This document shows, one piece after another, positions 36,708-38,342 of a DNA stretch of 64,000 bases. The translations under genes and the position numbers were made by a program. The notes beneath the pieces were generated by a model. The model did no database searches. It saw only the letters and a list, made by a program, of their open reading frames with translations, and was not told where the DNA came from. The DNA comes from Bacteroidota bacterium (lineage in GTDB: Bacteria > Bacteroidota > Ignavibacteria > 0-14-0-80-59-12). The DNA is taken from positions 71,966 through 135,965 of the forward strand of contig JBMFJZ010000005.1 in assembly GCA_049973045.1 (NCBI GenBank). The letters run 5' to 3'. Numbering within the stretch: position 1 is the first letter of the stretch; every line of letters starts with the position of its first letter.

Positions 36708-37433
36708 TCAAGCATTTAAAGAAACTTTGTGTGGATATTCGTTATATATTTTACCGTTTAATTTCCTTCCGTTTTTATGGTTAAAGACACCACCCCATTG
36801 CTTGAAAAAGAAAGAAATACCATTTTTTCTGCATTGACGGTAGATTTCCATAACCCACTCTTTTTTCATTGGTCGGGCACCTGGACCCGACTCCCCACCT
36901 ACAATTACCCAATCAATTCCCTTTGTTGGGAATTCAGAAATCGGTCCTAAAAGCGGTTCAAAAGAAATAAATTTAATCTTTGCTGGTGTCTGAAGGAGAT
37001 GATTAATTCTGTAAATGTAATCCGAGTTTTCCACAGAAACACCCATCCATATATTATCTGTCCATTCAACATGATTACAAACTTCAAGAAGTCGCTCTGA
37101 CCTTTTGGTTAAAACCTGAAATGTCAGATGTTTTGCTTTGTTCATCACTTTAAAAACCTCTTTTATGAAATCAAGTGGAACATCTTCGTGGAAAAGGTCT
37201 GACATGGAATTGACAAAAACGAAAGCAGGACCTTTCCAACGAAAAGGAACAGAAAGAAGGTCAGGATGCAAAGTCACTTCAAAACCGTTTTTGTATCTCG
37301 GATTTCCCATAAGCTGAAGACGCTTTGCGAAACGCTCAGCATAACAATTTTTGCACCCTGTACTTATTTTAGAACAACCTGTTACAGGATTCCAAGTGTA
37401 ATGTGTCCATTCTATTTTTGATTTTCCAGCCAT
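36708..37433 (-). CDS. DUF5131 / phage Gp37-Gp68 family protein (three-Cys motif)
   Basis: 241 aa starting [28 protein letters not shown] (C-x6-C-x2-C), then [45 protein letters not shown] and FFFKQWGG. Confidence 0.8.
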   Translation of the reverse strand: [241 protein letters not shown]

Positions 37434-37436
37434 AGT

Positions 37437-38342
37437 TTATCCCAACTTTTTTAATATATCATTGGCAATTTTTAATGCAGTTTTTGATGCCTTTTCATTT
37501 GCACATGCAAAAATGAGCAAGTAAATAGGATTTCGTTTGGAATTATAAAGTGCGCGTGGTTCTGATACAGCATAAAAGATTTCTTTTAACCTTTTGCAAA
37601 AATAATTGCCAATTTTAGTAATAGGAACTTTTTCTACATTCGTTTCAGGTCCAAAAAGTGTTTCTTTTTTGCTAACTTTATAAAATTCATTATACCATTC
37701 CTCCGTTCCAAAAAGTTTATTTAATCTCTCTCGTCTTTTATTGTCTATATTTCCATCTCTTTTAAGCAAGCGGTTTACGGCTACTCCTAAAGGGAACAAT
37801 ATCCAGCAGTCAATAGCCTTTGTTTTTGCTATCATTTCAAGGGTTTTCCATTCTACTTGCATTCCGTATGGGTCCAAAAAGACAAGAGCACGTTTTTTAC
37901 TCCAATCAGTAATCCTACAAAGTTTTTGAAGATATGAATTAGCGTCTTCATTTACAATTTTTGTTCTATCTTTTATATGTGAGAATTCTTTTTTTAAATT
38001 TTCTAATTCTTCACATTTTCCTTTATCCAATTCAATAAAGATAAATTCATCAAATGTTTCACCAGTTTTGTTATACATAGATTGTAAAGCAATTCGTGGA
38101 GAACCATCTAAAAATTTCCGAGTTTCTTCTTCAAAGAAAACGGCAAGATATCCTTTTTCCTCTGTATCTACTGCTCTATACCCTGGACCGGCGAAGGCGT
38201 CTATATAGATAATCTTATAATACCTCGCTTTTTCATTGCCCTTCATAATTGTTAGATAAGCATTTAAATATTTTTTCAAAGCTTCAAGTTTTTCTTCAGT
38301 CCAATCTCCTCCGAATGAATTTTTCTTTCTTACCATACTCAT
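37437..38342 (-). CDS. three-Cys-motif partner protein TcmP-like (SAM-MTase-like motif I)
   Basis: The track ORF 37437..38582 is a read-through of upstream remnant DNA, and the real start is probably MSMVRKKNSF at 38342. Key blocks are GGDWTEEKLEALKKYL and IYIDAFAGPGY (a D-x-F-A-G-x-G MTase motif-I look-alike). It ends 3 nt before the DUF5131 gene. Confidence 0.7.
   Translation of the reverse strand: MSMVRKKNSFGGDWTEEKLEALKKYLNAYLTIMKGNEKARYYKIIYIDAFAGPGYRAVDTEEKGYLAVFFEEETRKFLDGSPRIALQSMYNKTGETFDEFIFIELDKGKCEELENLKKEFSHIKDRTKIVNEDANSYLQKLCRITDWSKKRALVFLDPYGMQVEWKTLEMIAKTKAIDCWILFPLGVAVNRLLKRDGNIDNKRRERLNKLFGTEEWYNEFYKVSKKETLFGPETNVEKVPITKIGNYFCKRLKEIFYAVSEPRALYNSKRNPIYLLIFACANEKASKTALKIANDILKKLG

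Follow-up and report, generated by a model that had tools for sequence, protein, structure and literature searches.

Two adjoining genes in the window, the whole stretch of 64,000 nucleotides that was analysed, encode proteins of the TcmP and DUF5131 families. DUF5131 is predicted to be a radical SAM enzyme resembling the DNA-acting enzyme SPL (SplB), and TcmP was found beside a gene for a radical SAM protein in all 78 informative loci from other species. TcmP always accompanies a radical SAM partner and DUF5131 occurs mostly alone in phages, a dependency that is the reverse of restriction-modification (R-M) logic.

Although uncharacterised, the pair has been described before. The initial annotation had proposed an undescribed system, but PADLOC-DB v2 already lists the pair as candidate PDC-M41 (A, TcmP; B, DUF5131) together with the related PDC-M30 (A, TcmP with a winged-helix domain, wHTH; B, DUF5131), and RadicalSAM.org already places DUF5131. 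Both candidates are among the 145 untested guilt-by-embedding candidates of Payne et al. 2024 and derive from copies embedded within BREX, DISARM, type I R-M and Hma systems. Both PDC-M41 component HMMs find adjacent, end-to-end matches in the window, where gene order and strand agree with the catalogue entry. The window copy differs from the catalogued PDC-M41 and PDC-M30 in lying amid R-M fragments and MNT/HEPN genes, with no intact BREX, DISARM or type I system. The earlier remark that no biochemical function is known agrees with the searchable literature, where we found no biochemical function or experiment for TcmP, DUF5131, PDC-M41 or PDC-M30.

The gene pair and its island

Both genes lie on the minus strand. 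The TcmP reading frame (component A, 37437..38342, 301 aa) runs from an ATG at 38342 to a TAA stop at 37439-37437, and sequence inspection places a ribosome-binding site, AGGAG, 6 nt 5′ of the start. DUF5131 (Gp37/Gp68, component B, 36708..37433, 241 aa) follows downstream, its ATG (37433) separated from the TcmP stop by exactly 3 nt. The co-orientation, the spacing, the length of DUF5131 and the quoted motifs (C-x6-C-x2-C, the acidic blocks and IYIDAFAGPGY) were thus all recovered as initially annotated, and only the length of TcmP, given there as 302 aa, required correction.

A longer reading frame of 381 aa (37437-38582; stored as P0001) was rejected as an over-extension of TcmP, because it opens with ~80 codons of in-frame remnants, which stem from a DUF2851-like 5′ end and an Eco57I-type R-M 3′ end. 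These remnants lie in the non-coding leader 5′ of TcmP (38343..38582, minus strand), which gene callers fuse to the gene: repeat analysis (D5, D13, D14, D15) assigns 38518-38558 to the DUF2851-like sequence and ~38380-38493 to the R-M sequence. The leader remnant is 79% identical to the 3′ end of an intact Caldisericum R-M gene, and the leader also contains a degraded hairpin in addition to the AGGAG element. A scan for promoters and terminators gave no signals above shuffled expectation.

The pair resides in a low-GC genomic island (34617..49900; ~33% GC versus 48% in the flanks), delimited by composition, tRNA and domain content, that starts beside a tRNA-Asn gene (34617-34689) and is a horizontally acquired defence island. 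Its cargo comprises a RAYT-like transposase, TcmP-DUF5131, two MNT/HEPN pairs, a DUF4411 gene with HTH-M78, a Ymh/HEPN protein, a type IIG R-M gene and an SNF2+PLD helicase. At least six other defence-type modules share the island with the pair. An Rfam scan of the island returned only the tRNA. Visual inspection of the far end revealed no second copy of the tRNA-Asn 3′ terminus that would define att sites, nor did the island yield an integrase.

Directly upstream of TcmP is a toxin-antitoxin-type pair (38579..39300, minus strand; Pfam and PADLOC PDC-S09) consisting of MNT (38977-39300) and HEPN (38579-38980) genes, which are possibly part of the same transcription unit as TcmP-DUF5131. A leader of ~135 nt is common to MNT/HEPN and TcmP (repeats 39275-39404 and 38320-38455). 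On the other side, 19 nt downstream of DUF5131, is a DUF2851-like gene (35966..36688, minus strand, 240 aa; PF11013, E=5.7e-9) whose product is 84% identical in amino acids to that of the same-position Caldisericum gene and found no match in a PDB sequence search. This gene was considered as a third component and rejected; its conservation is confined to the window and the Caldisericum contig, and none of the 80 other loci has it, making it a lineage-specific third gene rather than a general partner. The description of the pair as lying between HEPN/MNT and R-M-like genes in a defence island therefore stands for the defence-rich, low-GC island by tRNA-Asn but not for the downstream side, which holds the DUF2851-like gene and R-M fragments with no intact R-M gene.

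Predicted folds of TcmP and DUF5131

Profile searches verified the two family assignments of the initial annotation. PF07505 matches DUF5131 over profile positions 1-243 of 243 (E=8.5e-97, 323.9 bits, cut-off 28.9) and TIGR04474 matches TcmP (E=8.4e-65, 219.3 bits, cut-off 53). The PADLOC models PDC-M41B and PDC-M41A match the same proteins at E=1.5e-115 and E=1.5e-113, respectively, and DUF5131 also matches PDC-M30B. All family-invariant residues are kept in both proteins.

DUF5131 carries a cluster motif, Cys20-x6-Cys27-x2-Cys30, whose three cysteines are invariant among 43 sequences. This spacing departs from the canonical C-x3-C-x2-C, and a Pfam search gave no match to PF04055 (Radical_SAM) at E<=0.01. 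However, hhalign places C-x6-C-x2-C-Y upon the C-x3-C-x2-C-Y of canonical Radical_SAM proteins with a three-residue insertion, and also pairs SMSDLFH with SGTDPYQ and GVSVE with GMSLP; in this comparison the motifs are colinear but the statistics weak (probability 18%, shallow profiles). Two further colinear pairs, VLTKR with ILTRS and FEP with WEP, were identified by eye from two alignments, and VGGESG also occurs in DUF5131.

An AF2 model of the protein (pLDDT 91.8) has the partial (beta/alpha)6 TIM barrel of radical SAM enzymes. Its top five Foldseek matches in the PDB are all SPL (prob 0.99-1.0, TMq 0.48-0.55, E-values ~1e-3), with NifB and MiaB lower in the list. Many of its matches among viral structures are radical SAM proteins, including viral COG0820 (the RlmN/Cfr group). 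A PDB sequence search found no match, and neither Pfam nor Foldseek revealed a nuclease fold or domain. RadicalSAM.org places DUF5131 in the radical SAM superfamily (Megacluster-5-2), in a cluster neighbouring that of SPL. Together, these data point to DUF5131 as an SPL-like radical SAM enzyme. Because it aligns with the cluster motif of radical SAM enzymes, and because the fold matches SPL, the three-cysteine motif is very probably an Fe-S site, in agreement with the metal or Fe-S site initially suggested. The wording ‘metal-dependent enzyme’ was too modest, as the evidence points more narrowly to an SPL-like radical SAM enzyme.

The best solved structures for the model (PDB 4FHC/4FHF) share with it a radical SAM partial TIM barrel, but sequence identity to SPL is only 10-12%, and DUF5131 is ~100 aa shorter, has the longer cysteine spacing, lacks a match to PF20903 as well as PF04055, and is paired with a partner of predicted methyltransferase fold. 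Other families show partial likeness. DUF5131 cross-matches TIGR04471 (rSAM_mob_pairA), of the TIGR04470/TIGR04471 ‘radical SAM mobile pair’, at E=8e-21 (74.5 bits, below the cut-off of 355), and it has motifs colinear with proteins scoring best against the PA0069/Rv2578c models (see below). The PA0069/Rv2578c and TIGR04470/TIGR04471 proteins differ from DUF5131 in carrying the canonical cluster motif and in being longer (316-371 aa). The PA0069/Rv2578c families presumably belong to the SplB-like COG1533 group, and we know of no demonstrated activity for any of these families.

TcmP contains the motif I sequence YIDAFAGPGY and a motif IV-like FLDPYGM. Residues D157, P158 and G160 of the latter do not vary in the family, and the sequences displayed have either Tyr or Phe at position 159 (DP[YF]G). 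The best Foldseek PDB match of its AF2 model (pLDDT 85.7) is RlmJ (6qe5, E=1.3e-6), followed by other class I SAM enzymes, and the model has a class I Rossmann SAM-methyltransferase fold that we classify as RlmJ-like. The proposal that IYIDAFAGPGY resembles motif I of SAM-dependent methyltransferases is supported by this fold. Conserved and colinear between TcmP and E. coli RlmJ, the 23S rRNA m6A2030 methyltransferase (PF04378), are motif I (YxDxxAGxGxY; YIDAFAGxGY aligned to YLDTHAGAGRY), GSPxIA, the acidic residue of beta-2 (Glu) and the D-P-aromatic motif. This colinearity is also seen with hhalign, at weak statistics (probability 9%) and with an RlmJ profile that is shallow because the database gave only sequences at least 83% identical.

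Unlike RlmJ, TcmP resides on mobile elements and always beside a radical SAM gene, and its DP[YF]G has one Pro fewer than the catalytic DPPY (motif IV). No Pfam family, PF04378 included, matches TcmP even at E<=1, and PDB searches with the single sequence and with a profile returned chance-level matches only. Methyl transfer by TcmP is therefore not assured, as there is neither a canonical DPPY nor a match to the RlmJ Pfam family. RNA may also be a target, given that RlmJ acts on rRNA.

Pairing, partner exchange and genomic contexts

To assess how constant the pairing is, we used 80 TcmP loci from other species, 78 of which were informative in having enough flanking DNA. DUF5131 directly adjoins TcmP on the same strand in 72 of them; it follows TcmP in 71 and precedes it in one (L064). 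Thus, the initially noted association of TIGR04474 with neighbouring PF07505 proteins, seen in the window with its 3-nt spacer, is conserved, and the pairing is not a matter of chance. In the remaining six loci the neighbour's best NCBIfam matches are the PA0069/Rv2578c radical SAM models, all below curated cut-offs. Of these six alternative partners, five belong to PF04055 (Radical_SAM), and the one at L006 scores best against the intein-containing Rv2578c model. No fusion proteins of TcmP and DUF5131 were found; the long reading frames proved to be start-codon over-extensions, and P0361 a tandem duplicate.

Of the two partners, TcmP varies more and is exchangeable. In 97% of 2,556 locus pairs DUF5131 shows the higher conservation, the mean identities being 65.9% for DUF5131, an average across phyla, and 52.7% for TcmP. 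TcmP homologues form ~2,800 clusters at 50% identity (E<=1e-10). A direct exchange is visible in the Caldisericum contig, where the flanks are kept (79-87% nucleotide identity) and DUF5131 is 91% identical, whereas the A gene encodes the sister subtype with a winged-helix domain and is 30% identical. The distribution of the pair is sporadic and HGT-like. The PDC-M30 form occurs at two loci in P. aeruginosa PA14, which makes genetics feasible.

Genes of type III-like R-M or Hma systems frequently flank the pair. In one locus (L012) it is bracketed by a BPTD_3080-family REase and a type III MTase; another (L029) has the same arrangement, with the MTase confirmed and the REase homologue inferred from position and size. 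A third pair (L025) follows HmaB-HmaC. Type III MTases account for 9 of 134 immediate neighbours versus 0 of 134 genes at least 7 kb away. Housekeeping genes are the sole neighbours at many loci. Other hypermodification genes (kinase, aGPT-Pplase or PLP enzyme) were not found near the pair, and neither protein matches any PADLOC R-M model.

Phages carry the two genes very unequally. TcmP is present in 10 of 50,697 phage records, while DUF5131 occurs without TcmP in ~171 of the 181 records that contain it, most copies being located in replication modules; in phages Sbash, RR1-A and PhiCh1, for example, solitary DUF5131 lies among replication and recombination genes. Such solitary copies fit DNA repair or modification as well as defence. 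In Gordonia phage PantheRoc, TcmP is directly downstream of the immunity repressor and adjoins the integrase. The defence genes gp43/44 of Gordonia phage CarolAnn were considered as homologues and rejected, as they are RexAB-like and unrelated; the analogy is one of position only.

Possible functions of the pair

We tentatively favor, at a confidence somewhat short of even, a role as an accessory anti-phage module that performs SAM and radical-SAM chemistry on DNA. The pair would be a mobile, co-inherited two-enzyme module making two uses of S-adenosylmethionine. The three cysteines of DUF5131 would hold a [4Fe-4S] cluster, and reductive cleavage of SAM would yield a 5′-deoxyadenosyl radical that takes hydrogen from nucleic acid, most probably from a flipped-out DNA base or lesion. 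TcmP may bind SAM and the flipped-out base so as to select, prepare or methylate the target, and would have no function in the absence of the radical SAM enzyme. Residing inside or beside R-M-type systems, the module would most likely act against phages or other mobile elements by chemically altering their incoming DNA, whether this damages the DNA or strips off or changes protective modifications.

That DNA is the substrate we infer from several observations. SPL and phage M6 gp53, the only characterised SPL-like enzymes, both act on DNA; SplB-like radical SAM genes and photolyases are linked to SOS and repair operons; and the sister TcmP subtype has a winged-helix domain. M6 gp53 is an SPL-like radical SAM isomerase of thymidine hypermodification that acts post-replicatively on DNA bases. 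It has been likened here to DUF5131 by description, and differs in its canonical CTVGCAFC motif and its membership in a 5-hmdU hypermodification cluster. A defence role is suggested by the embedding that underlies the PDC entries, by the three loci with type III-like and Hma genes, by the enrichment of type III MTases, by the slot occupied in PantheRoc and by the island in the window. Radical SAM key enzymes are known from the prokaryotic viperin, Ophion and HXS defence systems, but these belong to other radical SAM families, with PHP and PRTase partners in Ophion and a peptide substrate in HXS. Their products are small molecules or peptides, and no direct action on nucleic acid is predicted for them.

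Much of the same evidence could be accommodated by DNA repair or damage tolerance, wherein DUF5131 would reverse or process a lesion as SPL does, TcmP would recognise it, mobile elements and phages would carry the module for genome upkeep, and residence in defence islands would reflect hitch-hiking. The structural match to SPL, the solitary phage copies amid replication genes and the housekeeping neighbours of many cellular loci are in keeping with this, as are the alternative partners, which score best against PA0069/Rv2578c, and the ties of SplB-like photolyases to SOS and repair operons; Rv2578c is mentioned in a study of the LexA regulon of M. tuberculosis. We nevertheless consider repair doubtful, for the pair is inserted on the same strand within operons of type III-like R-M and Hma systems, immediate neighbours are richer in type III MTases than distal genes are, TcmP occupies a prophage slot downstream of an immunity repressor, and a sporadic distribution with A-gene swaps between otherwise conserved flanks is typical of conflict systems and not of core repair. 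Comparably unlikely is an epigenetic or hypermodification function, in which radical SAM chemistry and methyl transfer would install or remodel a modified base in the DNA of the element itself, shielding that DNA from restriction or marking it as self. M6 gp53 offers a precedent, motif I of TcmP is intact within a predicted methyltransferase fold, and DUF5131, more rarely TcmP, does occur in phage genomes. Set against these points are the absence of kinase, aGPT-Pplase and PLP enzyme genes nearby, the scarcity of TcmP in phages, its lack of a canonical DPPY, and the location of cellular pairs within complete R-M systems that have their own methyltransferases.

RNA could be the target if an RlmJ-like TcmP and a Cfr/RlmN/MiaB-like DUF5131 responded to infection by modifying rRNA or tRNA and so stopped translation. 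The closest structural match of TcmP is indeed an rRNA methyltransferase, MiaB and viral COG0820 are among the fold matches of DUF5131, and the adjoining MNT/HEPN modules are RNA-targeting. Yet SPL ranks above the RNA-modifying radical SAM enzymes, the motif kinship of DUF5131 is to PA0069/Rv2578c-scoring proteins and not to RlmN or MiaB, the sister TcmP bears a winged-helix domain, and many phages tolerate DUF5131 alone, making such abortive infection improbable. Far less probable still is a classical two-gene R-M system composed of a protective methyltransferase (TcmP) and a metal-dependent nuclease (DUF5131), the simple reading that gene adjacency, the predicted fold of TcmP and the nearby R-M genes would invite. 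DUF5131 has no nuclease fold or motif, no PADLOC R-M model matches either gene, and the asymmetry in dependency, with TcmP never found without a radical SAM partner and DUF5131 mostly solitary in the phages that carry it, leads us to reject this arrangement.

A more specific version of the anti-phage reading, which we regard as an outside prospect, is that the pair represents the first defence system to turn a radical SAM enzyme directly on invading DNA. RlmJ-like base presentation by TcmP would be coupled to radical restriction, or to stripping or rearrangement of hypermodifications on behalf of neighbouring R-M systems, and TcmP subtypes would set the specificity. If this is true, removal of phage hypermodifications by TcmP-DUF5131 would let the neighbouring R-M enzymes cut. 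Only two radical SAM enzymes, SPL and M6 gp53, are known to act on DNA, and DUF5131 would be a widespread and highly conserved relative. New here are the constant association of a predicted SPL-like radical SAM protein with TcmP, the predicted RlmJ-like base-flipping fold of the latter, the gene dependency opposite to R-M logic, and the finding that the pair rides in type III-like, type IIG and Hma systems. With these features, PDC-M41/M30 moves from an anonymous catalogue entry to a concrete and testable hypothesis on new DNA chemistry in the conflict between phages and their hosts.

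A catalogued gene pair

The two genes are co-oriented on the minus strand, with DUF5131 at 36708-37433 (an ORF of 241 amino acids) and TcmP extending from an ATG at 38342, with AGGAG 6 nt before the start, to 37437. Only 3 nt separate them (TAA stop, ACT, then ATG). This arrangement had been described in the initial annotation, and every motif quoted there is found as well: C20-x6-C27-x2-C30 and the acidic-block stretch in DUF5131, and IYIDAFAGPGY in TcmP. The TcmP gene also stands, although its best start yields 301 amino acids rather than 302. A 381-aa ORF from TTG 38582, the form of TcmP stored in the protein database, was rejected as too long, since it reads in frame through leftover pieces of other genes. 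HMM support for both family assignments is decisive: the proposed HMM check matches DUF5131 to the whole of PF07505 (E=8.5e-97) and TcmP to TIGR04474 (E=8.4e-65, 219 bits; cut-off 53).

While the observation is confirmed, its interpretation is supported in part. The pair had been offered as a good candidate for an undescribed system, but PADLOC-DB v2 already holds models for this very pair, PDC-M41A for TcmP (1.5e-113) and PDC-M41B for DUF5131 (1.5e-115); PDC-M30B, from a related candidate, matches DUF5131 almost as well. The PDC set comprises 145 untested phage defence candidates, derived from gene cassettes that BREX, DISARM and type I restriction-modification (R-M) systems carry within them; the method itself was pioneered with Hma systems (Payne et al., bioRxiv 10.1101/2024.01.29.577857). 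Likewise, DUF5131 is filed as a radical SAM superfamily member in Megacluster-5-2 of RadicalSAM.org, with spore photoproduct lyase (SPL) adjoining in 5-3 (PMC9477430). In agreement with the earlier view that no biochemical function is known, a full-text literature search found no functional test of TcmP, DUF5131, PDC-M41 or PDC-M30, only annotation tables and prevalence surveys. The pair is therefore uncharacterised, though not undescribed, and belongs to a candidate kind already catalogued as PDC-M41.

An island of cassettes

The pair resides in a low-GC island of 15 kb (about 33% GC, against about 48% for the genome) that begins beside a tRNA-Asn gene (34617-34689, plus strand) and carries at this edge a RAYT-like (REP-associated tyrosine transposase-like) gene (34784-35389, minus strand; NF047646 E=1.4e-19, below cut-off). 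The island yielded neither an integrase nor an att repeat. Also present are two MNT/HEPN pairs, an SNF2+PLD helicase, a type IIG R-M gene (42058-45885, minus strand), and three co-oriented genes (39679-42083, minus strand) for a Ymh/HEPN-type protein (PD-Lambda-3_B-like), an HTH+M78 peptidase resembling RmrA or spr1629, and DUF4411, which look like an additional regulator/toxin defence module.

Between these cassettes lie repeated gene-end fragments. The type IIG R-M gene's final ~88 nt occur three times (35893-35980, 39424-39511 and 42078-42165), a ~135-nt piece with an Eco57I-type R-M 3′ end, a hairpin and a ribosome-binding site occurs directly upstream of both TcmP (38320-38455) and MNT (39275-39404), and a DUF2851-like 5′ end occurs twice (36636-36676 and 38518-38558). 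Such fragments suggest that cassettes may be exchanged by recombination at conserved gene termini. The strong hairpin upstream of MNT (39334-39357, minus strand; AGGGGCGAAT-AATC-ATTCGCCCCT, 10-11 bp, -18 kcal/mol, z=-3.9) has a degraded copy upstream of TcmP (38384-38403). Set against the Caldisericum exile sequence, the hairpin is an insertion of ~13 nt, and it is not a terminator, since an A-run follows it.

The type IIG R-M gene itself contains, in frame at about 43230-43660, an IS200-like Y1 (HUH) transposase domain (PF01797, E=3e-11), inserted directly before the GGFDIVIANPPY methyltransferase motif; after the domain come three tandem 18-nt repeats that encode QPSAQ. This segment has 42% GC, versus 31-35% in the remainder of the gene, and a REP-like palindrome, CAGAGGGCT.AAGCCCTCTGTTGA, is present at 43278-43301 and again at 45187-45210.

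TcmP and its radical SAM partners

GTDB species, each represented by one genome, were scanned with two strict peptide patterns, and at least 585 loci encoding TcmP relatives (E<=1e-3) came to light, in Cyanobacteria, Chloroflexota, Acidobacteriota, Planctomycetota, Nitrospirota, Myxococcota and one archaeal MAG; when 1.84 billion cluster representatives were searched with a profile, 2,849 matched at E<=1e-10. Eighty loci were kept, 78 of which have room for a neighbouring gene. DUF5131 adjoins TcmP on the same strand in 72 of these, downstream in 71 and upstream in one (L064). The six exceptions, from five cyanobacteria and one verrucomicrobial MAG (L003, L023, L047 and L063, all cyanobacterial, L075, and L006 from Lyngbya), each carry an adjacent radical SAM protein, mostly divergent to TcmP.

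Five of these alternative partners are canonical Radical_SAM proteins (PF04055) of 316-371 amino acids, whereas the Lyngbya protein (L006:7227-9191) has 654 amino acids and best matches an intein-containing Rv2578c model. The top NCBIfam models for the six are PA0069, Rv2578c and ‘radical SAM mobile pair B’, all below curated cut-offs; we provisionally take these families to be the SplB-like group. By hhalign, their C-x3-C-x2-C-Y aligns to C-x6-C-x2-C-Y of DUF5131 with a three-residue insertion, and SGTDPYQ pairs with SMSDLFH and GMSLP with GVSVE; alignment by eye adds ILTRS~VLTKR and WEP~FEP. Thus all 78 TcmP genes adjoin a radical SAM enzyme, be it DUF5131 or a PA0069/Rv2578c-like protein, and this non-orthologous replacement independently supports both radical SAM chemistry in DUF5131 and a dependence of TcmP function on it.

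The dependence is one-sided. Among 50,697 phage records, DUF5131 is present in 181 and TcmP in 10. Solitary phage DUF5131 genes reside in early/replication modules (Sbash gp69, RR1-A, PhiCh1) or near an integrase (phi1026b), with no TcmP-size gene (about 300 aa) directly beside them in these four phages. Across the 78 informative loci and the phage records, DUF5131 is tolerated alone and TcmP is never alone. In Gordonia phage PantheRoc, TcmP lies directly downstream of the immunity repressor and beside the integrase, with DUF5131 convergent to it; prophage defence genes occupy the equivalent position in related actinophages (PMC6426606).

TcmP is also the more variable component. Mean pairwise identity is 65.9% for DUF5131 versus 52.7% for TcmP, and of 2,556 locus pairs, 97% show the higher value for DUF5131 (Spearman of the two identities 0.52). 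The Caldisericum contig (L001) has the order Eco57I-type R-M, a TcmP of 359 amino acids that carries at its C-terminus a ‘GMT-like’ winged helix (PDC-M30A type), DUF5131 and a DUF2851-like gene. Its DUF5131 shares 91% amino acid identity with ours, and the DNA is 79% identical ahead of TcmP, as far as its start, and 87% identical beginning with the DUF5131 ATG, whereas the TcmP genes (L001 2199-3278; window 37437-38342) encode proteins only 30% identical over 205 aligned residues. The replacement is bounded by the two start codons, with TcmP alone exchanged. By these comparisons TcmP behaves as an exchangeable subunit, presumably in the service of specificity or regulation.

Around the pair, type III methyltransferases account for at least 9 of 134 immediate neighbours versus 0 of 134 genes at least 7 kb away, and PADLOC families matched number 166 versus 54, a comparison that is rough because the distal proteins are shorter on average. 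Pfam matches among neighbours include ResIII (9), N6_N4_Mtase (8) and RE_endonuc (3), but many neighbours are housekeeping genes. At L012 a restriction endonuclease of the BPTD_3080 family lies on one side of the pair and a type III methyltransferase on the other. L029 shares this layout, with the methyltransferase confirmed and a ~1000-aa gene at the endonuclease position, and L011 and L074 resemble it by gene size and order only. At L025 the pair follows HmaB-HmaC, and L022 matches that locus in gene sizes and order.

Individual loci show further variation. L079 carries an extra copy of DUF5131 (14030-14869, minus) on the opposite strand, about 2.4 kb downstream, and an 81-aa truncated DUF5131 ORF in L062 (11365-11610) suggests decay. 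A 412-aa TcmP representative (P0363) begins with an MNT-like nucleotidyltransferase stretch, through fusion or else because the gene call reads through, as happens in the window. An MNT/HEPN pair lies two genes from TcmP/DUF5131 in L011 (8877-9598), and this neighbourhood may be recurrent.

Predicted folds and possible chemistry

The AlphaFold2 model of DUF5131 (pLDDT 91.8) is a partial beta/alpha barrel whose five top solved-structure matches are all SPL (prob 0.99-1.0, TMq 0.48-0.55, E about 1e-3), followed by NifB and MiaB amid generic TIM barrels. Radical SAM and GP88-domain proteins make up many of its matches among viral structures, and the NCBIfam model ‘radical SAM mobile pair protein A’ cross-matches it at E=8e-21, below cut-off.

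The TcmP model (pLDDT 85.7) has a class I Rossmann SAM-dependent methyltransferase fold, in keeping with the likeness noted initially from motif I. Its top match is E. coli RlmJ (6qe5, E=1.3e-6), ahead of AzeJ and NNMT. Profile-profile comparison aligns TcmP with RlmJ at low significance (E=0.0036, prob 9%) but keeps four motifs colinear: YIDAFAGTGY~YLDTHAGAGRY, GSarIA~GSPLIA, IFIE~LTELH and FLDPYGM~LIDPPYE. All 41 TcmP sequences compared share motif I, G80-S81, D157-P158 and G160, and nearly all share E104; the family has DP[YF]G at the position of the RlmJ DPPY. PF04378 finds no match in TcmP, and we describe the protein as RlmJ-like in its predicted fold but outside the RlmJ family; it may plausibly transfer methyl groups.

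By analogy, DUF5131 would generate a 5′-deoxyadenosyl radical from [4Fe-4S]/SAM and use it on DNA, while the RlmJ-like base-flipping fold of TcmP would provide target recognition and possibly methyl transfer. We infer a DNA substrate because the SPL-like radical SAM enzymes with known reactions, SPL among them, all work on DNA bases and because SplB-like genes are linked to SOS/repair neighbourhoods (PMC3765255). Of the possible outcomes, we consider lesion repair unlikely. Self-modification or self-marking of DNA, to which methyl transfer by TcmP might contribute, seems no more probable, and a classical R-M reading is rejected, since DUF5131 stands alone and TcmP does not, the reverse of methyltransferase/nuclease logic. 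RNA-directed abortive infection appears less likely than repair or self-modification, although the closest structure to TcmP is that of an rRNA methyltransferase. We tentatively favour defence-linked DNA chemistry, for example damage to foreign DNA or the removal or rearrangement of phage modifications, while regarding it as somewhat short of an even chance. The biochemistry of TcmP together with DUF5131 is an attractive target.
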